Positions 23,635 to 40,227 of a stretch of DNA of 60,174 nt are shown in pieces (position 1 is the stretch's first letter; every line of letters starts with the position of its first letter). The DNA lies in the NCBI GenBank assembly GCA_015523565.1, contig WAKA01000203.1:1-60174 (forward strand), in the 5' to 3' direction. The translations under genes were made by a program, and so were the position numbers. This DNA comes from Candidatus Heimdallarchaeota archaeon (GTDB taxonomy: Archaea; Asgardarchaeota; Heimdallarchaeia; Heimdallarchaeales; Kariarchaeaceae). Below the pieces are notes generated by a model. It worked only from the letters and a program-made list of their open reading frames with translations. It did not search any database and was not told the DNA's origin.

Positions 23635-23855
23635 TATGGGCTCCTGAATCCGAAAAAAATCTGCATTTGTAAAATCAAATAGATTACCCTTCCCAATGCA
23701 TTATATCATGTCAATTCTCCACTATATCCTCAAACAACTTTTATACAACATATTTTTCCCTACCACATACGAATGCACTGGAGTTGTTTCTTTCATGGAA
23801 AAAACATATCAACTCCAAATTATCAAAAACAATGCATTCTCATGAAGGTGAAGAC

Positions 23856-25091
23856 ATGATTGGTGATTATAATGGTGTCACCCTCTCCAAAAGGGATACG
23901 GAAGTACTCAGAGAACTCGAAACGCAAGTGGGAAAGATTCCCCAACTTCCTCAAGTCGAACCAGAAACTTTCGGGTTTGCAGTAATGAACCAAAGGGTGA
24001 CTGCATTGGGACTTTACAATAAGGGTCTGACATCTCTCCCTGATACTATTGGAACTCTAACCAACCTTCAGGAACTGTATTTGCATGAAAATGAGTTGAC
24101 TTCCCTGCCAGAGTATTTGGGAAACCTCAAGAACCTTAAATGCCTGCATGTGGAAAATAATCGGCTGACCTCTCTTCCCGAAAGTCTTGCGAGCCTTGAT
24201 AGCCTCCAAGAATTGTATGCAAGAGATAATTATTTGACATCTCTTCCAGAATCTTTAGGGGACCTTCAGAACCTTCAAGTTCTTAACTTAGGGGGAAATG
24301 AATTGGCTTCACTTCCTGAAAGTTTAGGGGAACTTCAGAACCTTCAATATCTGTATTTGTACGAAAATGAGTTGACATCTCTTCCCGAAACTTTGGGAAA
24401 CCTCCAAAACCTTCAAGTACTTAATTTAAGTGGAAATAAGTTAACTTCCCTCCCTGAGAGTATAGGTGAACTCCGGAACCTTCAATACCTCATTGTTACC
24501 GGAAACAAGATAACTTCTCTCCCCGAAAATTTATCGGAACTCTACAATCTCCAATGCCTCGATTTAGAATCAACTCAACTGACATCCCTTCCCAATAATA
24601 TCGGCAATCTCCAAAACCTCCAGACCCTCAATCTAGGATCAAACCGTTTGGTCTTCCTTCCAAACAATCTAGGAAACCTAATCAACCTTCAGGAACTAGA
24701 TGTCTCTTACAATAGGCTGAAATCCATTCCTAATAGCATGGGTAATCTCCAAAATCTCCAAACTCTAAGATTAAGTGGAAATCAGTTGACCTCATTGACT
24801 GAAACAATAGGAAACCTAACAGGTCTTCATGAACTGTATGTGTCTTACAATCCGCTGATGTCTCTTCCCGAAAGTATTGGCAATCTAATAAACCTCCAAG
24901 TTCTCATTTTAAAAATGAATCAGTTAATGTCTCTTCCTAGCAGTGTAGGCAATCTCAAAAACCTTCAAAAACTCGATATGTATTATTGCCCGTTGACAAC
25001 CCTCCCAGAAAGCATTACTCAGTTGTCATTGAGATATCTGGACATTAGGGGCTTCAAGAAATTGAAACTGTCCAAATCTATTAAAAATTGA
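23856..25091 (+). CDS. Leucine-rich-repeat protein (about 15 23-residue repeats); the TGA at 25089-25091 is probably premature
   Basis: LxxLxLxxNxLTSLPESLGNL repeats; SD-like AGGTGA before ATG 23856; a cap motif continues in frame to TAA 25133. Confidence 0.93.
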   Translation: MIGDYNGVTLSKRDTEVLRELETQVGKIPQLPQVEPETFGFAVMNQRVTALGLYNKGLTSLPDTIGTLTNLQELYLHENELTSLPEYLGNLKNLKCLHVENNRLTSLPESLASLDSLQELYARDNYLTSLPESLGDLQNLQVLNLGGNELASLPESLGELQNLQYLYLYENELTSLPETLGNLQNLQVLNLSGNKLTSLPESIGELRNLQYLIVTGNKITSLPENLSELYNLQCLDLESTQLTSLPNNIGNLQNLQTLNLGSNRLVFLPNNLGNLINLQELDVSYNRLKSIPNSMGNLQNLQTLRLSGNQLTSLTETIGNLTGLHELYVSYNPLMSLPESIGNLINLQVLILKMNQLMSLPSSVGNLKNLQKLDMYYCPLTTLPESITQLSLRYLDIRGFKKLKLSKSIKN

Positions 25092-25712: not shown

Positions 25713-26777
25713 ATGATGATTGATATTTCCAATGACTTTTTCACTCAATTCATTGAATTTCTCAATAGTCATCCTGAATCCAAGGAAAAACTGATAGAAA
25801 TGTTTAATCAGGAATTCGTCAAACGTGATGAATTGAGTGAATTACTTCAGGAGATAAAACAATTAAGGATTGAAAGCAATCAGCGATTTGAAGAGTCCAA
25901 TAAGCGGTTCGATAAGCTTTTGGAGGAATCAAGCAAGCGGTTCGATCAACTTTTGGAAGAATCAAACAAGCGGTTTGAGGAGATAAACAAGCGGTTCGAG
26001 GAGTCCAACAAGAGGTTTGAAGCTTTCCAGCAGGAAGTATATCGGCGGTTCGAGGAGATAAACAAACGATTTGAGCAGATTGACAAACGGTTTGAGGAGT
26101 CTAACAAAAGGTTCGACGAGCTTCTGAAGGAAACAAACAAACGCTTCGAGGAGATAAACAAACGGTTTGAGGAGTCCAACAAGAGGTTTGAGGCTTTTCA
26201 GCAAGAAGTGTATCGGCGGTTCGAGAAGGTTGATCAGCGATTTGAGGAATCCAACAGGAGGTTTGAGGCCCTCCAAAAGGAGATGAATGAGCGGTTTGAG
26301 AAGGTTGACAAACGATTTGAGGCAATGCAGGAACAAATAGACAGGCGGTTTGATGCAGTATTTCGAAGATTTGACGAATTAAGCATTGCGTTAGGTCATG
26401 ATTTTGAGGAATTCAATTCATTATGGCTCCAGGATTTCCTTCGAAATCAAGGATATCCAAAACTGACAATAAAGAAACGTACGTTTGTTGATCCCAATTA
26501 TGAAGTGTTTTCTGATTCCACAGATGTTGAAGTGGATGTTTATCATGAAGATCCTTTTGTCATTGGGGAAATTACAGCAATCACGAGAAAACTTTCAAAG
26601 GTCACAACATTTCTCAGGAAGGTTGAATTCCTGAAAAAACTGAAGGGGAAGGAGCCCATGACATTCTTCATTACATATGGTTTTTTACCAGAAATCAGGA
26701 ATGAGGCATTAAGGTTGCTTGAGGAAGCGGGAGTAAAGGTTTATGCACTTAGACACAGGAAGATGGAAAGTGATTGA
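25713..26777 (+). CDS. Coiled-coil repeat protein with C-terminal PD-(D/E)XK-like nuclease domain (DUF3782/DUF1626-like)
   Basis: More than 20 (N/D)(K/R/Q)RF(E/D) units; C-terminal G..FEE...EVDV....VIGEIT motif. Confidence 0.82.
   Translation: MMIDISNDFFTQFIEFLNSHPESKEKLIEMFNQEFVKRDELSELLQEIKQLRIESNQRFEESNKRFDKLLEESSKRFDQLLEESNKRFEEINKRFEESNKRFEAFQQEVYRRFEEINKRFEQIDKRFEESNKRFDELLKETNKRFEEINKRFEESNKRFEAFQQEVYRRFEKVDQRFEESNRRFEALQKEMNERFEKVDKRFEAMQEQIDRRFDAVFRRFDELSIALGHDFEEFNSLWLQDFLRNQGYPKLTIKKRTFVDPNYEVFSDSTDVEVDVYHEDPFVIGEITAITRKLSKVTTFLRKVEFLKKLKGKEPMTFFITYGFLPEIRNEALRLLEEAGVKVYALRHRKMESD
25870..26380 (+). repeat. Intragenic 21/33-bp tandem repeats containing a 171-bp duplicated block
   Basis: Recurring AACAAGCGGTT(T/C)GAG; GAGGAGTCCAACAAGAGGTTTGA recurs at 25998 and 26169. 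Confidence 0.85.
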
Positions 26778-28989: not shown

Positions 28990-30264
28990 TCAGAAGAACT
29001 TTTCCTTGCACCATGGACAGTTGTTGCTTATTGAAAACCAGTTCTCCATATGACTTGAGTGGATTGGGTGGTGACAGGATCTGCATCTTTCAAAATCCTC
29101 TTTTTCAGGAGATATGATCCCTCTGCAAATGGAGCAGTATTCAATTGGCTTCAAACAGTTGGGACAGGTGTCCATGCCATATGACTTACTAGGCAACGGG
29201 GTTTGGCAATGGGGGCAATAGTCAGATCTAAAACGTCTATATGCTCTTCTAGTGCCCTGACTGACATTGTATGCAAATCTTTGGGTTGCTTGGATCCTTT
29301 TCTTGATCCATTCAGGATTTGCAATGAAAATGATTGTTGTGGGTATGATCAATAATATTGTGGAAATCTGAAGCAGTACTGGATCATTGTTTCTCCAATA
29401 TCCTATGATGGAGATGCCTGCAAATAGGTATCCTATCATGGGGATGTTCTGGGCTATTTGAAGGGCGTTTTCCCTTAGGTAGGCAGAAAGGACTGCAATC
29501 TGCCTTCCCAACAGATGGACAATTCCAACGGTGAAGTTCCAAAATCTGGCAAGGTATTGGGGGAGGTGGGTTATCCATTCAACAATTGTCTTGGATATGA
29601 TTACAATCCAACTCCAAAAGAAGAATGCCCCTGCAAACAATAACTCTCGTATTTCGAACAATGTCATTGCAATTCCGATTGCTATAAAGACAGTCATGAC
29701 TTGGAAGGCGTTTACAGGGAAGCCAATGCCTGTAATTGCACTTGAAAGGGATTGGTCAAGATCAGTGAACAAGAAAAACAGGATTATGATGATGTCAATG
29801 AATATGAGTACAACAACTGGAGAATGCCTTATTCTCAACCATAGCCTTTCCATTCCTACTGTGAATGCAATCCTGAATTTGTTGATCGCGGAAATTATGT
29901 AAGTGTTAAGTTCATATATGGTGGTGACAAACCCCAATACAACAAGCAGAATGCCTCCAATTGCCATTGTCCACTGTAGTGAAATGTTTATGTTCACTTG
30001 AGCCACAAGTAGCAGTAATGGAATCGAAAAGATGACAACTCCTAAGTAGACAATGATTGAGCCCAATGCCCAGTACTCTGCACCAAGTCGTTGCAGTCTT
30101 TCAATAATGTAGCTAAGCATCAGTATGAGAAATCCCAAGGTCAAAAGCACCAGTCCTGTTGTCTGGCTGTCAAATGTCCCTTGATTTGGGATGAACATGA
30201 CAATCATTCCAATGATGGCGAGCACTATCCCCCCTTGTCCCAAACGTGTTGTGTTCAAATTCAT
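28990..30264 (-). CDS. Polytopic membrane protein with C-terminal zinc ribbon and RING-like finger (putative E3 ligase)
   Basis: About 8 TM, then CPHC..CPNC, CSIC, CRSCHHPIHSSH..W....CPWC. Confidence 0.82.
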   Translation of the reverse strand: MNLNTTRLGQGGIVLAIIGMIVMFIPNQGTFDSQTTGLVLLTLGFLILMLSYIIERLQRLGAEYWALGSIIVYLGVVIFSIPLLLLVAQVNINISLQWTMAIGGILLVVLGFVTTIYELNTYIISAINKFRIAFTVGMERLWLRIRHSPVVVLIFIDIIIILFFLFTDLDQSLSSAITGIGFPVNAFQVMTVFIAIGIAMTLFEIRELLFAGAFFFWSWIVIISKTIVEWITHLPQYLARFWNFTVGIVHLLGRQIAVLSAYLRENALQIAQNIPMIGYLFAGISIIGYWRNNDPVLLQISTILLIIPTTIIFIANPEWIKKRIQATQRFAYNVSQGTRRAYRRFRSDYCPHCQTPLPSKSYGMDTCPNCLKPIEYCSICRGIISPEKEDFERCRSCHHPIHSSHMENWFSISNNCPWCKEKFF

Positions 30265-32072
30265 GGTTTGTTACCTCCGAAATCCACACCTTCTATTTTC
30301 AGAGTTTCTCTTCTGGCATAGGTATACCTTGGTATCAGTATCCCAAAAGTCAATATCATCCCACCAACAATGAATCTTTGCAGGTTTGGAAGATCAGGGA
30401 TGATGCTTTCAAACATTCCTTTCCCAGACAGACCTGAGAATATTAGCAAGAACCCATAGATAATTCCCAAAATCCCCAAGAAAAAGGAAGAAACTAGGAC
30501 AATGTTTTCAACTATTGCCTCAAGCAAATTGACTATGGCTTTTCCTATTCCTCCAAAATTATGCCAGATGAACCTCAAAATTGCCCTTGGAAATCCAAAG
30601 ACAAGTGTTCCCCAAAACCTGCTCACAAATCCCAAAATTACAAGGGATGCAATGAAAAGTCCAATTCTCAAATATTTGATTTCTGGTATCCATAAATTGA
30701 AAATTGAGACAAACATGAGCCCATATCCTGTGATTTTTCCAACTACTTGCAGGTTTTTCAGCTTTTCATATAGTTGTTTCAACATTTCCATAAAGCCACG
30801 TGTTGTACTTTCAAAACCAAAAATCAAAGATAGAAACCCCGAAAGGAAAAACAAATACCTCGGAACGTTTTTGTAACCAATAAGGGTCAAAACAATGAAG
30901 AAAAAGAATCCTGCAATCCCCAATGTGCCTCTCAGTACCTTCAAATTGGAAAGCCTCCTGAAAATGACTCCTCCAACTATCCTCATGACATGCATAAATC
31001 TTACTAAAGAAAGGAAAAACCTGTCAATAAACCTGAAAATCCTGAAATTATTGAAGGATGAAAGAAACAGTCCTGTCAACACAATATAGGGGATTTTGTA
31101 ATTTGTTGGTATCCTTTTGACATTAATCAGCATGACAATCCCCACAAAAAATAAATGCAGATAATATTTGGACGAAACTCTCCAAAGCCATTTGGATGCG
31201 TACCAAAGTTTTCTATATGCAACAAACTTATTGTAGGAAGATAACAGAAGGATACCTGCAATCCAAGTCGGTTTCTGATATTGCAAAGGCACGAATGGTG
31301 ATGCCATGACAGTTGCAAATCCAAGAACGACTGCAAATCTACTTGGGTCTTCCATGAAAAACATTATGGACTTCATTATCGATTCTTTTATCTTTGTAAT
31401 GAATGTGATATATCTCTTGAAATTATTTGAAATATAGATAATCATTGTTTTACTTACGAAAACTATGTCTCTGAAGAGAGCCAATATGACAAATATGCCT
31501 CCAAGCAATGTAAAATTGATAGGTGAATTGTTGAAATAACCCAATTGGTCAAAAACAATGAAACCAATCCCTGTAAAAAACAAAATGAATTCCGCAAATC
31601 TAAGGGGATCATTAACTAGTATCAATTTAAGCCTATAAACTGCACTTTTAATTGTCTGGATCAAAAGGATTGGAAGCACTTTTGCGAATGAAATTATTGT
31701 CCTGAAAAGAAATTCAAAAAGCTTGTCGATAAGAAATATCCTTGCAATAATTGACCCTATTGCCAATCCGAATGAATATGGGGCGAGGTTCCACTCTGGA
31801 ATGAAACTTGAGACTACAAGAAGACCTGATGCAATGAAAATTGCTATTTTCAAGAATGAATTACCCAACTGCGATTTTGTAAACAATGCAACACTGACAA
31901 AAATGAATGTCAACACGGATAATATCTGAAGCATTAGAATATCCGCTTTCTTGCCTATCATCACAAAAAATAGCAAGCCAATAGCCCCCAAAAAGGCTGT
32001 GTTTGTGAAAACCAAAAAAATATTCTTTGCAAGGATTAAACCAGTTTCATTTGCCCCAGTTTCTTTTTTCAT
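30261..32072 (-). CDS. Large polytopic membrane protein with internal repeats
   Basis: More than 14 hydrophobic helices arranged as hairpins; repeats NDPLRFA/EDPSRFA and LLSSYNKF/FLSSFNNF; 4-bp overlap with the RING gene. Confidence 0.78.
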   Translation of the reverse strand: MKKETGANETGLILAKNIFLVFTNTAFLGAIGLLFFVMIGKKADILMLQILSVLTFIFVSVALFTKSQLGNSFLKIAIFIASGLLVVSSFIPEWNLAPYSFGLAIGSIIARIFLIDKLFEFLFRTIISFAKVLPILLIQTIKSAVYRLKLILVNDPLRFAEFILFFTGIGFIVFDQLGYFNNSPINFTLLGGIFVILALFRDIVFVSKTMIIYISNNFKRYITFITKIKESIMKSIMFFMEDPSRFAVVLGFATVMASPFVPLQYQKPTWIAGILLLSSYNKFVAYRKLWYASKWLWRVSSKYYLHLFFVGIVMLINVKRIPTNYKIPYIVLTGLFLSSFNNFRIFRFIDRFFLSLVRFMHVMRIVGGVIFRRLSNLKVLRGTLGIAGFFFFIVLTLIGYKNVPRYLFFLSGFLSLIFGFESTTRGFMEMLKQLYEKLKNLQVVGKITGYGLMFVSIFNLWIPEIKYLRIGLFIASLVILGFVSRFWGTLVFGFPRAILRFIWHNFGGIGKAIVNLLEAIVENIVLVSSFFLGILGIIYGFLLIFSGLSGKGMFESIIPDLPNLQRFIVGGMILTFGILIPRYTYARRETLKIEGVDFGGNKP

Positions 32073-32245
32073 TCAAGTTATTTTACTATTGATGACTTAA
32101 AAAGAACATTACACCTTTTGGTACAACCTTGTAGATTGAATGGAAAAAAATATCCCTTCAAACAAATCTGTCAAATCAAATGAAATTATTATGAATTTGA
32201 ATAATTATACACATAAAATTTTTCAACATGACTTTCCTATTTTAA

Positions 32246-34243
32246 ATGGGTATGCCTGTTGATTTTGCAATAATGCTTGGGTTTGCCGCAACCCAATTTA
32301 CTGGGAAAGCCATTTCATATCTCATTCATGCTGGAATAAACAAGGCAGAAGATGAAATTGAGGATATGGCCATCAAATCAATCAGCAAGATGGTTCAAAA
32401 GGCACTTGGAAAAAGATTTGAAAAGACAGAAATGGACAAGCAACAAATTGAAATGCTAATCAGGGAACAAGTTGAAAAACTCATTGATGAAATCATTGAT
32501 GAAAAAAGTTCAAAGTCAAAATTAAAGACAGATTTCATAAAACAGACGAACTTTTCTGAGAAGATAGATGAAATCCTGAATATGGGGGAGGATCAATTCA
32601 AGAAATATCTTTCACGTTTTGATCAACTTGGAGATAGCAAAAATTTTCCAGAACCCACATATAAAACTAAATGGAATGCCATTCAGAAATACCTATTGAG
32701 AAAAAACGTTCTGAAAGAGAATGCAAAGACCCTTGGTGTCAAAGAATTTAACATAGATGGTGTTCCGTTTCTTCCCTTGACCCCTTTGGACCTTGACGAG
32801 GAAAAAATATTGGAAATGATAACTCAATTGCATAAGGGCAGACAAACCACAAATATCCCACTCAAAGATATTGCTAACCTTTCTGGAATGGAATTCAACA
32901 AGGTTTACAACTTAACGACCAAGCTTTTGAAAGATGGGTACATAGAGGGAAAGATACTTACTTCAGAAACCCAAATGTTAAGAAATGACCAATTGGAATT
33001 GTCTGGTGATTGGAATAAGCTGGAAGAGTACAAGGAAGACATTATATACATTAATTCACTTATAAAGGTTCATAAATATGAAGAAGTTCTGCAGGCTTTG
33101 TCAACAATAAATTTGAAATATAGGGTCAAGAAAGACAATGAAGTCAAAAAAATCGTGGAACGGCTACTGGCTGTTGAAACAATGCATAAAATTGAATTGC
33201 AGATTGTTGAACTAGTAGAAAATAACGCCTCACCAAAATTTGTTTTGGAAAAAATAGATGAAATTCTCACCCTACCTTTGCCAGTTCATATGATAAAAGA
33301 ATTTGAGTTATTGAAAGAATATTATTGCCTTAAAAAAGAGGCAATTGATTATCTATTACAAAAAAACTATGAAATGGCTACTGCTAAAATAAAATCCCTT
33401 ATTCCGAAAATTCCTCAACAATATGAGGATTTTGAAAAGGCATGGTCCAAAAATTTCATTGAAACTGTGTCATATCGAATTAAAAGCAACAAGGAATTGC
33501 AAATCAAGTATAATGTAATGAAGAATGCCCTACTTGAGCAAATTGAATTGAGAAACCTTCAACCTTCAAAACAATTGTTTGATAGGGTAAAGGTTCTTTC
33601 AAAGAGAGTTGGGAAAGATTCCGATATACTGGAATTACAAAATAAATTCAATGAAGCATTTGGGCTTGTTGAATTTAGAGGTACACAAATTCCAAACCAC
33701 GAGAAGGAGGCAATTGAAAATATTGAAAGACAGGTCAATGGAACCTTCAAATTGTTAAGACAAGTCAGGTGGAATGATTTTGGCATTGTAATCCGCAACA
33801 ATAGTGTGGTTCAAATCGGTTTTTATTCAAGGCATTTGAAATCCTTGCCCAACGACCTGTCCAAATTGTCTTCCCTTAAATTATTGAATCTGACTCAAAC
33901 ATATCTGAAAGCTTTTCCAGACTGGATTGCAAATCTTCAGGACATTTCAACCCTGATGCTACGTTTCTGTTCATTCAATAAGTTTCCAATAATAATTACA
34001 AAATTGAAAAACCTCCGAAGAATTGATCTGTCTTACAATCAAATTGACTCCATTCCAGATGAGATTTCTGCATTGGAAAACCTTGTTGAGATAAGAGTAA
34101 ATCACAATCGAATCAAAAAGCTTCCTGAAGTCCTTTTGGAAATGAAAAACCTGAAAGTGGTCTATTGCCTTGAAAATAAACTGGACAATGGAAGTATGAA
34201 GATATTGGATACATTGCGTGAAAGAGGGGTCAGGATTTCTTGA
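32246..34243 (+). CDS. Multidomain LRR protein (helical N-terminus, PCI-like winged helix, helical region, C-terminal LRRs)
   Basis: IPLKDIANLSGMEFNKVYNLTTKLLKDGYIEGKI wHTH; about 6 LRRs; cap LRERGVRIS. Confidence 0.85.
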   Translation: MGMPVDFAIMLGFAATQFTGKAISYLIHAGINKAEDEIEDMAIKSISKMVQKALGKRFEKTEMDKQQIEMLIREQVEKLIDEIIDEKSSKSKLKTDFIKQTNFSEKIDEILNMGEDQFKKYLSRFDQLGDSKNFPEPTYKTKWNAIQKYLLRKNVLKENAKTLGVKEFNIDGVPFLPLTPLDLDEEKILEMITQLHKGRQTTNIPLKDIANLSGMEFNKVYNLTTKLLKDGYIEGKILTSETQMLRNDQLELSGDWNKLEEYKEDIIYINSLIKVHKYEEVLQALSTINLKYRVKKDNEVKKIVERLLAVETMHKIELQIVELVENNASPKFVLEKIDEILTLPLPVHMIKEFELLKEYYCLKKEAIDYLLQKNYEMATAKIKSLIPKIPQQYEDFEKAWSKNFIETVSYRIKSNKELQIKYNVMKNALLEQIELRNLQPSKQLFDRVKVLSKRVGKDSDILELQNKFNEAFGLVEFRGTQIPNHEKEAIENIERQVNGTFKLLRQVRWNDFGIVIRNNSVVQIGFYSRHLKSLPNDLSKLSSLKLLNLTQTYLKAFPDWIANLQDISTLMLRFCSFNKFPIIITKLKNLRRIDLSYNQIDSIPDEISALENLVEIRVNHNRIKKLPEVLLEMKNLKVVYCLENKLDNGSMKILDTLRERGVRIS

Positions 34244-34265: not shown

Positions 34266-34754
34266 TTAAATTTGATACTCTTTTTTGTTCATGACTTGCC
34301 TGACAGTTAACAATCCGTTTTCAGGATCAAATATTATTGTCCGCCCATAGTTTTCCCCCACATCTTGAGCGACAATTCTTATCCCAAGGTTTTTTAAGAC
34401 ATTGACAACAGAATCTATATTTCTTCTGCCAATATCCAAGGAATCTGTAGAAACGTTGGTTTCAAACATTTTTGCACCGCCTGCAATCTTGGCAACAATG
34501 TTCTCTCTTTTTGCCCCCATGGCTTCCATTCTTCTAACTGCCTCTGGTATTGCAGTCGTCGCGAATTTGCCTGGGTTGGCTTTTCCATCATTGTTCATTT
34601 CTGTAGGGAGAAGAACATGTGCAAGTGCGGCGATTCGGGTTGTTCTATCGTAAAGAACCACTCCGACACAACTTCCCAATGCAAGAGCCTGTAACTTTGA
34701 GGGAGGTTTGCCAATCTGAATTTCTCCAATTTTCGCCGTAAGTACCTCTGTCAT
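34266..34754 (-). CDS. cheD: Chemoreceptor glutamine deamidase CheD
   Basis: LGSCVGV, AHVLLP, GKFA, AKIAGGAKMF, IGRRN, DVG..YGRT; ATGA overlap with cheC. Confidence 0.96.
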   Translation of the reverse strand: MTEVLTAKIGEIQIGKPPSKLQALALGSCVGVVLYDRTTRIAALAHVLLPTEMNNDGKANPGKFATTAIPEAVRRMEAMGAKRENIVAKIAGGAKMFETNVSTDSLDIGRRNIDSVVNVLKNLGIRIVAQDVGENYGRTIIFDPENGLLTVRQVMNKKEYQI

Positions 34755-35422
34755 GAATACATTTCCTCCCAATTTTCTCCATAAATGGTTGTCATCAACG
34801 CATTCATTGCCCGTGTGTCTGGAAGAAGGAGAATGTCTCCTTTGATTTTTTCACCGTCCGTAAAAATGTCAACTTCCACAAGCAAAAACCTTTCCACATT
34901 TTCAGGATCTGCCGAAATCAATTCATCAGTCAACGCCCCAACCATGTCTATTGCAAGGCTTGGGGCGTGTGGAAACCATCTTGTCTCGGTGAAACTGTTG
35001 ATGGCTGTTATTGTATGTATCAAAAGAATATTTCCTGTTTCCTTGATGAGTGATATGGAAACCTCATCAAGATTTTCCAAACTTTCAGGAATGGGTGACG
35101 CAATTAAGGTTTTCAACAATTGCTTTACCGATGAGAAATCAAATATCAACAATAAGTTCAATAAGCCCTTGTCTTCTTCTGATGTTTCCTGTAGTATTCC
35201 TGCGACCACTTCTTCTGGAGATGCGGCCAAATGTTCACTGACTTCCTCAACCTTTACAAACCTTACTCTGGGGATGCTCATGTCCACTTTCCTGTTCAAA
35301 AGCTGAGAAAGTGCCGTGGCTGCATGACCTACTCCGATATTGCTTAATTCTTGCAGGGCTTCTATCTTTGGGTCGTAGTCTTGAAAGAAGCTGTCATCAG
35401 GAATCTTTAAACCCATCTGCAT
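34751..35422 (-). CDS. cheC: CheY-P phosphatase CheC
   Basis: Two ExxN motifs (LQELSNIGVGHAATALSQL and IKETGNIL); adjacent to cheD. Confidence 0.93.
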   Translation of the reverse strand: MQMGLKIPDDSFFQDYDPKIEALQELSNIGVGHAATALSQLLNRKVDMSIPRVRFVKVEEVSEHLAASPEEVVAGILQETSEEDKGLLNLLLIFDFSSVKQLLKTLIASPIPESLENLDEVSISLIKETGNILLIHTITAINSFTETRWFPHAPSLAIDMVGALTDELISADPENVERFLLVEVDIFTDGEKIKGDILLLPDTRAMNALMTTIYGENWEEMYS

Positions 35423-38785: not shown

Positions 38786-39868
38786 TTGCCTGTTACTGTA
38801 TTGATCGCAGATGATTCACCTTTTATGTTGAAACTGCTTGAAAATACAATCAAAACCGACCCCAATTTGAAAATCATAGGCATTGCCAAACGAGGGGTTG
38901 AATGTATTACTCAAGTAATAACAAAGAGACCAAGGGTTGTAATACTTGATATCATGCTTCCTGATGAAAGTGGTCTCAATATTGTCTATCAGATTATGCG
39001 TGCAAGACCCACCGCTGTTTTGCTGTTTTCTTCCTTGACTGCTGAAAAAGTCAAACAGGACTCTCTTGTCTTCAATTATGGGATTGTCGATTTTATCAGC
39101 AAGCCCCCTGCGGATGTCGATGACCCTGTATTGTATTTGAGAAAAGTCCTCCTGCCAAAAGTGCATACTCTTGCCAAACTGACTGTCTCTAAATTTCGTA
39201 CCATGATCTCAACCACAAATGATGAATTTCTCGGAAGAATGCCGATACATACTGCAAAGGCAGTCAGTATCACCAAACCCAGTGAAAGTAGACTTTCCCT
39301 TTCAAAGAAGGCAATAATTATCGGAGCAAGTACAGGCGGTCCTGGTGCACTGTCTGAATTATTTCCAATGCTTCCAGATAATCTTCCCCCCATTATTGTT
39401 GTCCAGCACATGCCTGCCGGGTTCATTGAATCATTTGCCAGCAGGCTTGACAGATGTTCCAAAATCAAGGTTGAAGCTGCGTCCAATTTGAAAGAGATCA
39501 AACCTGGTCACGCATACATTGCTCAAGGAGGAAAGCATCTGGTTTTAGAAAAATCAGAGAATGGAAAAATTATCTGTAAATTGGAAGAAACTGAAATGGT
39601 CAATTTTGTCCGCCCGTCTGTTGATGTGACTTTGATCTCTGCGGTTCCGATATTCAAGGACAAATTGATTGTGGTCATCATGACAGGAATGGGGAAAGAC
39701 GGTCTACAAGGCGCCAAACTTGCAAAGAAATATGGTGCAAAAGTCATTGCACAAAGTGAAGCAGATTCTGTCATTTTTGGAATGAACAAAGCTGTCATTG
39801 ATGCTGGTATCGTTGATAAGGTGGCACCCATAAAGGACTTGGCTAAGGTAATTGTTGAATTATCCTAA
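38786..39868 (+). CDS. cheB: Chemotaxis methylesterase CheB (receiver plus esterase)
   Basis: ADDS, LDIMLP and KP receiver motifs; GASTGGP, VQHMP, RPSVD and MTGMGKDG catalytic motifs. Confidence 0.97.
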   Translation: MPVTVLIADDSPFMLKLLENTIKTDPNLKIIGIAKRGVECITQVITKRPRVVILDIMLPDESGLNIVYQIMRARPTAVLLFSSLTAEKVKQDSLVFNYGIVDFISKPPADVDDPVLYLRKVLLPKVHTLAKLTVSKFRTMISTTNDEFLGRMPIHTAKAVSITKPSESRLSLSKKAIIIGASTGGPGALSELFPMLPDNLPPIIVVQHMPAGFIESFASRLDRCSKIKVEAASNLKEIKPGHAYIAQGGKHLVLEKSENGKIICKLEETEMVNFVRPSVDVTLISAVPIFKDKLIVVIMTGMGKDGLQGAKLAKKYGAKVIAQSEADSVIFGMNKAVIDAGIVDKVAPIKDLAKVIVELS

Positions 39869-40227
39869 GAAGAAACAGTCTTTTCAATGGCTTTGACGAT
39901 TTCCTCATTTCTGAAAGGTTTAATGATGAATTCCCTTGCACCCGACTTAATGGCATCCAAAACAAATGCCTCTTGACCTAAAGCGGTAACCATGACAATT
40001 CTAGCATTTGGATCAAACGACATAATCTGTTTGACGGCTTCAATACCGTTTTGCTTAGGCATAACTATATCAAGTGTCATACAATCTGGTCTCTCTTTTG
40101 CCCAAATCTCAACTGCGTCAAGTCCTGTTTCACCTTCCGCAACTATTTCATGACCTGCCTCTGTTAAAATCCTTCTCAATACTAATCTCATGAATTTTGC
40201 ATCATCTACAATTGCTATTCTAGCCAT
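39865..40227 (-). CDS. cheY: CheY response regulator (copy 1)
   Basis: VDDAKFMR, LDIVMP, VTALGQ, FIIKPF; single receiver domain. Confidence 0.93.
   Translation of the reverse strand: MARIAIVDDAKFMRLVLRRILTEAGHEIVAEGETGLDAVEIWAKERPDCMTLDIVMPKQNGIEAVKQIMSFDPNARIVMVTALGQEAFVLDAIKSGAREFIIKPFRNEEIVKAIEKTVSS

Follow-up and report, generated by a model that had tools for sequence, protein, structure and literature searches.

A co-translated pair of polytopic membrane proteins, one ending in a zinc ribbon and a RING finger: a candidate membrane-embedded ubiquitin ligase of Asgard archaea

The subject of this report is a pair of adjacent genes in a stretch of 60,174 nucleotides (the window) that makes up positions 1 to 60,174 of contig WAKA01000203.1, from an assembly of Candidatus Heimdallarchaeota archaeon (GCA_015523565.1; class Heimdallarchaeia, order Heimdallarchaeales, family Kariarchaeaceae). 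The upstream gene, P0002, codes for a protein made of repeated transmembrane (TM) hairpins, and the downstream gene, P0001, for an eight-TM protein that ends in a zinc ribbon followed by a RING finger. On the basis of sequence and structural models, the two products are a plausible candidate for a two-subunit, membrane-embedded RING ubiquitin-ligase complex, a reading to which we give odds slightly better than even (a probability of roughly 0.55). Its parts differ in firmness. It is very probable that the tail of P0001 is a true cytoplasmic RING, and the two proteins quite likely form a complex; E2 binding, ubiquitin transfer, the substrates and the downstream route are what we infer from there.

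Both genes lie on the minus strand, P0002 (603 amino acids) at 30261..32072 and P0001 (424 amino acids) at 28990..30264. The original prediction, made from the letters of this DNA alone, described two genes of these sizes overlapping by ATGA, and both open reading frames (ORFs) were confirmed. Read directly in the sequence, the overlap places the ATG of P0001 at 30262-30264 and the TGA stop of P0002 at 30261-30263. A Shine-Dalgarno sequence, GGAGGT (30273..30278, minus strand), is found 8 nt upstream of the P0001 ATG, within the last codons of P0002. Such an overlap, together with an internal GGAGGT, is the usual signature of coupled translation. Upstream of P0002, an AT-rich intergenic region of 173 bp (32073..32245) separates the pair from a divergent leucine-rich repeat (LRR) gene, and is presumed to be the promoter region of the two-gene operon.

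The C-terminus of P0001 carries, in order, CPHC (residues 350-353), CPNC (367-370), CSIC (377-380), CRSC (394-397), H402, H405, W409 and CPWC (416-419). The first two knuckles form a zinc ribbon, CPHC-x13-CPNC (residues 350-370; 29155..29217, minus strand), in which the four Cys are invariant; it gives matches to the Pfam families DZR and zinc_ribbon_16 and aligns to the CPGC knuckle of MIOS. The rest is a RING finger of the C4H2C2 type (residues 377-419; 29008..29136, minus strand), recognized by its invariant ligands, by an AlphaFold2 (AF2) model and by superposition. Its ligands are C377, C380, C394, C397, H402, H405, C416 and C419, and it also contains I379, W409 and P417, with K420 following the last Cys. 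The spacing, C-x2-C-x13-C-x2-C-x4-H-x2-H-x10-C-x2-C, is fixed in 37 of the 47 distinct modules of the TM-RING family that were compared. The ligand string proposed originally was right in its motif and wrong in one distance, since CSIC and CRSC are 13 residues apart and not 14. H398 and H399 were considered as zinc ligands and rejected, as they are not conserved; within the run CHHPIHSSH, H402 and H405 alone are kept. All 12 zinc ligands (four Cys of the ribbon and eight residues of the RING), as well as W409 and P417, are invariant in an alignment of 17 sequences with 18-42% identity to P0001. Ligands as invariant as this, at such low identity, go far beyond what chance would give. In RING-H2 domains the canonical fourth ligand is the His two residues after Cys 3; this position is a His in just 5 of the 47 modules, and an invariant extra Cys sits three residues upstream of Cys 3, which yields the C4H2C2 arrangement.

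An AF2 model of the zinc module, computed from the 17 sequences, has a predicted local distance difference test score (pLDDT) of 79 overall and of 86-91 over the RING, where a beta-beta-alpha core is formed by strands 58-60 and 67-69 and helix 70-79 (model numbering). Whether the C-terminus folds as a cross-brace RING had been named as a check, and the modelled RING is both confident and superposable on solved RING-H2 domains: Foldseek places it on RNF165, RNF12 and EL5 with a root-mean-square deviation (rmsd) of 1.3-1.8 Å over 49-53 residues, some of the chains being taken from E2~ubiquitin complexes. VIA-align returns Z scores of 6-7.2 against the RINGs of Nse1, listerin, HRD1 and RNF4.

The membrane domain of P0001 (residues 1-347; 29224..30264, minus strand) was modelled by AF2 from an alignment of 34 sequences with a pLDDT of 87. 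The model consists of four TM hairpins (7-24/33-59, 67-87/94-114, 149-166/186-204 and 274-292/295-315), with TM helices of 18-23 residues, and of long helices at 117-147, 206-272 and 317-346. The eight helices agree with the count of about eight TM segments originally proposed. Lys and Arg are absent from the four short loops that face one side, and every long helix, like the tail, is basic. Because Lys and Arg occur only on the side that bears the RING, the positive-inside rule predicts that both termini, and the zinc module with them, are cytoplasmic. The cytoplasm is also where a zinc-thiolate domain would have to be.

P0002 has about 15 hydrophobic helices by hydropathy, in keeping with the more than 14 TM segments first noted, and no Cys-rich domain can be seen in its sequence. 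It is a tandem array of units of about 86 amino acids, each made of a basic amphipathic helix and a TM hairpin with very short outer loops, and it aligns to itself at an offset of about 86 residues with 90% probability. The partners found in the sister family self-align even more clearly (E 3e-48, at offsets of about 100 residues), and in each of their units an amphipathic helix leads into a TM hairpin, whose outer loop is very short, and a basic helix follows. Over the whole partner family the unit measures about 85-100 amino acids. Long basic amphipathic helices between TM hairpins, as originally described, are borne out for both subunits, in P0001 by the AF2 model and the one-sided Lys and Arg, in the partner by the tandem repeats. 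Variation in repeat number accounts for the wide range in partner length (500-900 amino acids) and for fast divergence. Orthologs of P0002 are only 32-35% identical, and direct sequence searches with it give matches in its own genus only. The partners fall into three sequence clusters, between which profile-profile comparison gives matches in register at the C-terminus with 87% and 52% probability; the conserved C-terminus of P0002 reads PRYTYARRE..L...G.D.GG.K. A bridging sequence, from locus L063, matches both the cluster of the other genera (5e-12) and P0002 (3e-6 over 275 residues); the database being small, these E-values are generous, and the alignments are long and collinear. A hairpin-helix unit of P0001 has a weak match to the sister-family partner repeat (51% probability), from which paralogy of the two subunits is not claimed. 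Our search found no fusion of partner and RING protein, which is weak evidence. At one locus of genome G003 (L051:875-3171), the partner appears as two consecutive ORFs of 563 and 202 amino acids, which could reflect a frameshift, a sequencing error or a real split.

Neither P0001 nor P0002 reaches any Pfam or NCBIfam family, and only the tail of P0001 gives sub-threshold matches (zinc_ribbon_16, DZR, zf-RING_2 and zf-RING_16). Fold searches with the TM domain of P0001 returned nothing better than E >0.05 and TM-score <0.25 in Foldseek, and generic helical hairpins only, with Z of at most 9, in VIA-align. Hrd1, Doa10, the Pex RING peroxins and the reticulons are missing from these lists, which shows neither absence nor novelty of the fold. 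Both TM families are new in the sense that they have no Pfam family and no match to a solved fold.

A word-based search with P0001 detected two relatives, at 39-42% identity. A profile search of 83 species genomes of the class located the full-length protein in five of the six genera of its own family and across the sister family of the same order; in the other orders of the class it gave no full-length match. With the TM domain alone as the profile, 73 proteins were retrieved among 1.84 billion representatives, about 34 of them full-length. The search also returned a group of more distant relatives, in which 5-6 TM helices precede the same ribbon and RING tail. The pair is present in 17 of the 17 loci that have enough upstream sequence, which span the two families and the distant subgroup: the window, 14 loci from species genomes and metagenomic contigs, one from the distant subgroup (899 amino acids, 14-bp overlap) and one metagenomic (820 amino acids, 4-bp overlap). 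In every such locus the RING gene starts within, or right next to, an upstream ORF of 500-900 amino acids that has 12-21 hydrophobic segments. Conservation of the gene pair, on which the original prediction had made its case depend, thus extends to every locus inspected. The pair itself is the only constant element; the neighbours vary by lineage, and a constant third operon gene was rejected for this reason.

The ubiquitin, E1 and E2 genes that a ligase would need were looked for in the assembly (3.57 Mb, 90% complete), and all three kinds are present. Of three matches to UQ_con, two keep HPN and a Cys downstream and are E2s; the third, a UEV protein, is Cys-less and carries a coiled-coil tail. 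Three ubiquitin-like matches, in one of which GG and a short pro-peptide form the end, three ThiF/E1-like genes and three Cdc48 homologs complete the set, and about 12 proteins have the same or a related RING module. An Asgard-type cluster on contig C104 unites two ubiquitin-like genes with an E1-like gene (418 amino acids), an E2 gene (173 amino acids) and a RING protein gene; the other E2 (136 amino acids) is encoded on contig C204 and the third ubiquitin-like protein on C97. The E1-E2-RING cascades of Asgard archaea and of Caldiarchaeum are active in vitro (preprint 10.1101/2023.07.25.550441; PMC5654768). The RING E3s of archaeal ubiquitin operons (Caldiarchaeum subterraneum and the Asgard clusters) share their organismal context with P0001. 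These proteins are small or lie inside the operon, however, whereas P0001 is unlinked to any ubiquitin gene, has eight TM helices and comes with a ribbon and an obligate polytopic partner.

The proposed mechanism runs as follows. P0002 and P0001 would be made from one mRNA by coupled translation and would most likely assemble in the cytoplasmic membrane. The repeated TM hairpins of P0002, each bordered by basic amphipathic helices on the cytoplasmic face, may serve as a platform to which P0001 would add four similar hairpins, so that the module with its three zinc ions would be held in the cytoplasm at the end of a helix of about 30 residues. The RING would dock a Cys-bearing E2~ubiquitin through I379, W409 and P417, with K420 as a putative linchpin, and would stimulate transfer of the ubiquitin to lysines on proteins in or close to the membrane, possibly also to those in the Lys-rich helices of P0002 itself. 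Proteins modified in this way may be marked for handling by Cdc48 and the proteasome or by ESCRT.

Over the 47 modules, the presumptive E2-contact positions are I or V in 47, W in 46 and P in 47, and the residue after the last Cys is K, R or H in 45. Judged by sequence, this conservation fits an E3. As to the nearest relatives, the RING half and the whole module point to different proteins. When the family profile is compared with the PDB, the RING half matches RNF165/Arkadia best (1e-8), then EL5, RLIM, RNF38, synoviolin/HRD1 (1e-5), AMFR (2e-4) and listerin. Taking sequence and fold together, its closest counterparts are RNF165/Ark2C, Arkadia, RLIM/RNF12, RNF38 and EL5. P0001 shares with these RING-H2 E3s the hydrophobic residue in the first CxxC, the helix Trp, the CPxC and the basic residue after the last Cys; unlike them it is C4H2C2, is preceded by a ribbon and is embedded in the membrane.

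The ribbon and RING together match only the C-terminal domains of GATOR2/SEA and IFT-A subunits in profile comparisons. Over both halves, E-values against the PDB are 2e-6 to 8e-6 for WDR19/IFT144, 2e-5 for WDR24, 1e-4 for MIOS and 3e-4 for WDR59, and IFT122 is matched as well. The original prediction had likened this combination to GATOR2/SEA C-termini, a comparison now upheld by the profiles, by Foldseek and by a borderline Pfam score. In Foldseek, the module's ranks 1-29 are all GATOR2/SEA chains (MIOS, WDR24, WDR59 and Sea4 among the relatives), with E from 8e-5 over 70-99 columns at 23-30% identity. The rmsd of 7-10 Å in these alignments indicates that the ribbon and RING halves are oriented differently. 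WDR19 gives a fold match over the whole module at an rmsd of 3.5 Å (TMq 0.55). The trimmed module scores 27.3 bits against zinc_ribbon_16 (PF17034; cut-off 27), over profile positions 26-115 of 125; whole P0001 obtains 20.6 bits, below the cut-off, nine of the 17 family members match, and the genome-scale search did not report the family. Aligned as a single sequence, MIOS is collinear with P0001 from the second ribbon knuckle through C-x2-C-x-H-x2-H-x2-H-M-x2-WF to CP. GATOR2/SEACAT (MIOS, WDR24 and WDR59; Sea2, Sea3 and Sea4) and IFT-A (WDR19/IFT144 and IFT122) thus have the same two-part module, in the same order and at the C-terminus, and share with P0001 a ligand run composed of a CPxC knuckle, a short linker and CxxC ... 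CxxC-x-H-xx-H-xx-H-M-xx-WF-x5-CP. One difference lies in what precedes it. GATOR2 and IFT-A subunits are soluble, coat-like proteins of beta-propeller and alpha-solenoid construction, whereas P0001 has an eight-TM domain in front instead, and residues 1-347 have no match to a WD40 or solenoid family in Pfam.

Several observations weigh against an E3 complex. P0001 itself stays below the Pfam zf-RING_2 cut-off (19.6-20.2 bits versus 27.3). Its ligands run C4H2C2, with four residues (x4) separating ligands 4 and 5, which departs from the canonical RING-H2 order. The nearest whole-module relatives, those of GATOR2/SEA, are structural RING-RING junctions for which a ubiquitin role is not established; the RINGs of the SEA complex "clearly play a structural role", and their ubiquitin function is undetermined (PMC9646525). 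MIOS, too, keeps the hydrophobic residue in the first CxxC, the Trp and the CP, so that these residues do not discriminate between catalytic and structural RINGs and are necessary but not sufficient for E3 function. W-x6-CPxC, which had been called the E2-binding hallmark of RING domains, is hence well conserved in the family without being proof of E2 binding. Finally, Foldseek and VIA-align reveal no cavity-forming or Hrd1-like fold in the TM parts that would suggest retrotranslocation, and no E2, ubiquitin or Cdc48 gene is linked to the operon.

The label originally attached to the pair, that of a ligase resembling those of endoplasmic reticulum (ER)-associated degradation (ERAD), has to be reduced to its layout. 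Like P0001, Hrd1/synoviolin and gp78/AMFR have a multi-pass TM domain, a cytosolic C-terminal finger of the RING-H2 type and additional membrane subunits; Hrd1 also has eight TM helices. The RINGs of HRD1 and AMFR are among those matched by the P0001 family profile, and VIA-align scores them at Z 6.4 and 5.7. In contrast, no Pfam or fold similarity was found between their TM domains and that of P0001. P0002 is a tandem hairpin-repeat protein and not a Sel1-repeat protein, a derlin or Usa1, and the pair has no extra-cytoplasmic domain for substrate recognition. Doa10/MARCH6 differs in another way, its RING-CH (C4HC3) being N-terminal to about 14 TM helices, whereas the RING of P0001 is C-terminal and C4H2C2. 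Because no TM similarity to Hrd1 or Doa10 was found, the partner is unlike Hrd3, derlin (Der1) or Usa1, an extra-cytoplasmic domain is missing and neither a Cdc48 nor an E2 gene is linked, an ERAD-like or quality-control role may be proposed as an analogy of layout only, and not as homology. To our knowledge, archaea have no ER.

The alternative that survives best, and that we nevertheless regard as rather unlikely, is a structural scaffold with no enzyme. Here the ribbon and RING would be a zinc-stabilized, dimerizing junction, as in GATOR2/SEA and IFT-A, joining P0001 to itself or to another of the 12 or so module proteins, and the arrays of TM hairpins would be linked into a lattice that organizes or bends the membrane with a wedge like that of reticulons and REEPs. 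The Foldseek ranking with its 29 GATOR2/SEA domains at the top, the collinear MIOS alignment, the 27.3 bits of the trimmed module and the structural heterodimers of the SEA complex all speak for it. So does the build of the two proteins, almost wholly TM hairpins with minimal outer loops and long amphipathic helices, and so does the free variation of partner repeat number between lineages, as expected for a scaffold. The features shared with reticulons, REEP/Yop1 and Lunapark are the TM hairpins with tiny outer loops and the amphipathic helices; Lunapark has a zinc finger as well as a hairpin and a coiled coil. On the other hand, the RING half scores better against active monomeric or dimeric E3s (RNF165/Arkadia, 1e-8) than against GATOR2 chains (2e-5 to 3e-4), the basic linchpin residue is retained in 45 of the 47 modules, and GATOR2/SEA RINGs form heterodimers whereas P0002 has no RING to pair with. 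The TM helices of P0001, at 18-23 residues, are full-span, unlike the short wedge hairpins of reticulons, the tandem units of the pair are many, and no sequence match to reticulons or REEPs, nor any fold match in the Foldseek and VIA-align lists, turned up, lists that show neither absence nor novelty.

A related and bolder proposal would make the ribbon and RING module an archaeal forerunner of the protocoatomer C-terminal junction domain of GATOR2/SEA and IFT-A, with P0001-P0002 as a RING-tied membrane lattice, a pre-eukaryotic coat or scaffold with or without E3 activity. We consider this improbable. It draws on the occurrence of the module in proteins with HEAT solenoids and PCI domains.

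Indeed, the module occurs in every genome of the class and in many architectures. In the genome of the window, the best paralog of the P0001 tail (E 2e-19) is a 695-amino acid protein on contig C8 (L054:2942-5029, minus strand), which has several winged-helix or PCI-like units before the same ribbon and RING; orthologs of about 690-700 amino acids exist in nearly every genome of the order. On contig C6 (L056:12-2907) of the same genome, a gene for a 673-amino acid protein with about 15 TM segments is overlapped by one for a soluble, 308-amino acid HEAT-like-repeat protein with the same tail. The 673-amino acid protein was considered as a relative of P0002 and set aside, there being no detectable relation. 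In another family of the class (L070:598-2658), a 687-amino acid protein has six HEAT_2 repeats (E 7e-59), a PCI domain and the ribbon and RING tail; with an alpha-solenoid before the module, it is laid out like the C-terminal half of GATOR2 subunits. Other proteins with the same tail, of 1005-1007 and 809 amino acids, belong to no Pfam family.

A further alternative comes from the genomic neighbourhood. In the two closest relatives the order is cheC-cheD-partner-RING on one strand, the partner gene beginning about 70 bp after cheD, and in other genera of the same family the pair adjoins genes for a protein with a CheA P2 domain, TPR proteins, response regulators and a small DCC1-like protein. 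P0002 may accordingly be conceived as a channel, a transporter, a lipid-handling protein or a signalling platform, and P0001 as its dedicated regulator, which would ubiquitylate P0002 or bridge it to cytoplasmic factors and, in the window's own family, might act on the chemotaxis apparatus. The strict 1:1 coupling fits a dedicated regulator. Yet in the sister family the neighbours are not chemotaxis genes, being instead an SPFH protein with a double zinc ribbon, a GT2 glycosyltransferase or hydrogenase-maturation genes, and in the window an LRR gene stands between cheD and the pair. P0002 itself has no family or fold signal of a transporter or channel, few conserved polar residues within the membrane and a fast sequence turnover. 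Altogether, a regulated membrane machine of this kind appears quite unlikely.

That the tail merely looks like a RING and is a zinc module outside ubiquitin biology, binding nucleic acid, lipid or metal, is very improbable: the sub-threshold matches to many Cys-rich families (DZR, C1_1, DnaJ CXXCXGXG) would allow it, but both the spacing of the cross-brace and the beta-beta-alpha core are specific to RINGs, nearly all hits of the fold searches are RING or U-box domains, and 17 of the 17 family members match zf-RING_2 at E<0.01 (best 1.1e-8).

The surroundings of the pair can be described further. The chemotaxis genes of the window (cheY, cheB, cheC and cheD) lie beside it, at 34266-35422 and 38786-40227; the locus compared was L022:72-6071. 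The intervening LRR protein (32246-34243, plus strand; 665 amino acids) has a long helical N-terminal part and C-terminal LRRs, and is absent from that position in the relatives; a second LRR protein is encoded at 23784-25091 (plus strand). At 25713-26777 (plus strand), a 354-amino acid protein consists of long, near-identical, heptad-like repeats (RFEE.NKRFE and similar) and a globular C-terminal part, and its Pfam matches are spurious coiled-coil hits only. In some genera of the window's family, the RING gene is directly followed by a gene for a protein of 113-120 amino acids (L040:2274-2615, L042:6660-7001 and L063:6353-6715). The two 113-amino acid proteins that were scanned match the DCC1-like thiol-disulfide oxidoreductase family, and this gene may be a third operon member in that lineage. 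Four sister-family loci have an ORF of 327-329 amino acids directly downstream of the RING gene (L043:6859-7848, L044:1419-2402, L047:5577-6560 and L048:1089-2072); the product of the one scanned, that of L043, belongs to the SPFH/Band-7 proteins and ends in a double zinc ribbon.

Membrane quality control and trafficking in eukaryotes depend on membrane RING ligases and on coat-like complexes with subunits that end in a ribbon and a RING. The antecedents described so far from archaea are ubiquitin, E1, E2, small RING proteins, Cdc48 and the proteasome. RING E3s of Asgard archaea and polytopic RING ligases of eukaryotes are already known. What is new is the eight-TM family, its obligate hairpin-repeat partner, the identification of the tail as a module of the GATOR2/IFT-A type and the spread of this module through the class; our literature searches gave no description of the eight-TM RING family, of its partner or of a GATOR2/IFT-A-type module in the class. 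A 2026 preprint on structural clusters common to Asgard archaea and eukaryotes includes RING-type E3 ligases among alpha-solenoid proteins, with no mention of GATOR or of a membrane form (PMC13734099). No membrane E3 from archaea is named in a 2026 review of Cdc48-dependent proteolysis (PMC13328587), and the conserved, co-translated pair therefore offers a concrete and clonable candidate. Besides, the C-terminal module of the GATOR2/IFT-A type is already present, in many architectures, in the archaeal class that is usually placed closest to eukaryotes. Two questions thereby become testable, namely when ubiquitylation first reached the membrane and where the C-terminal domain of protocoatomer proteins came from.

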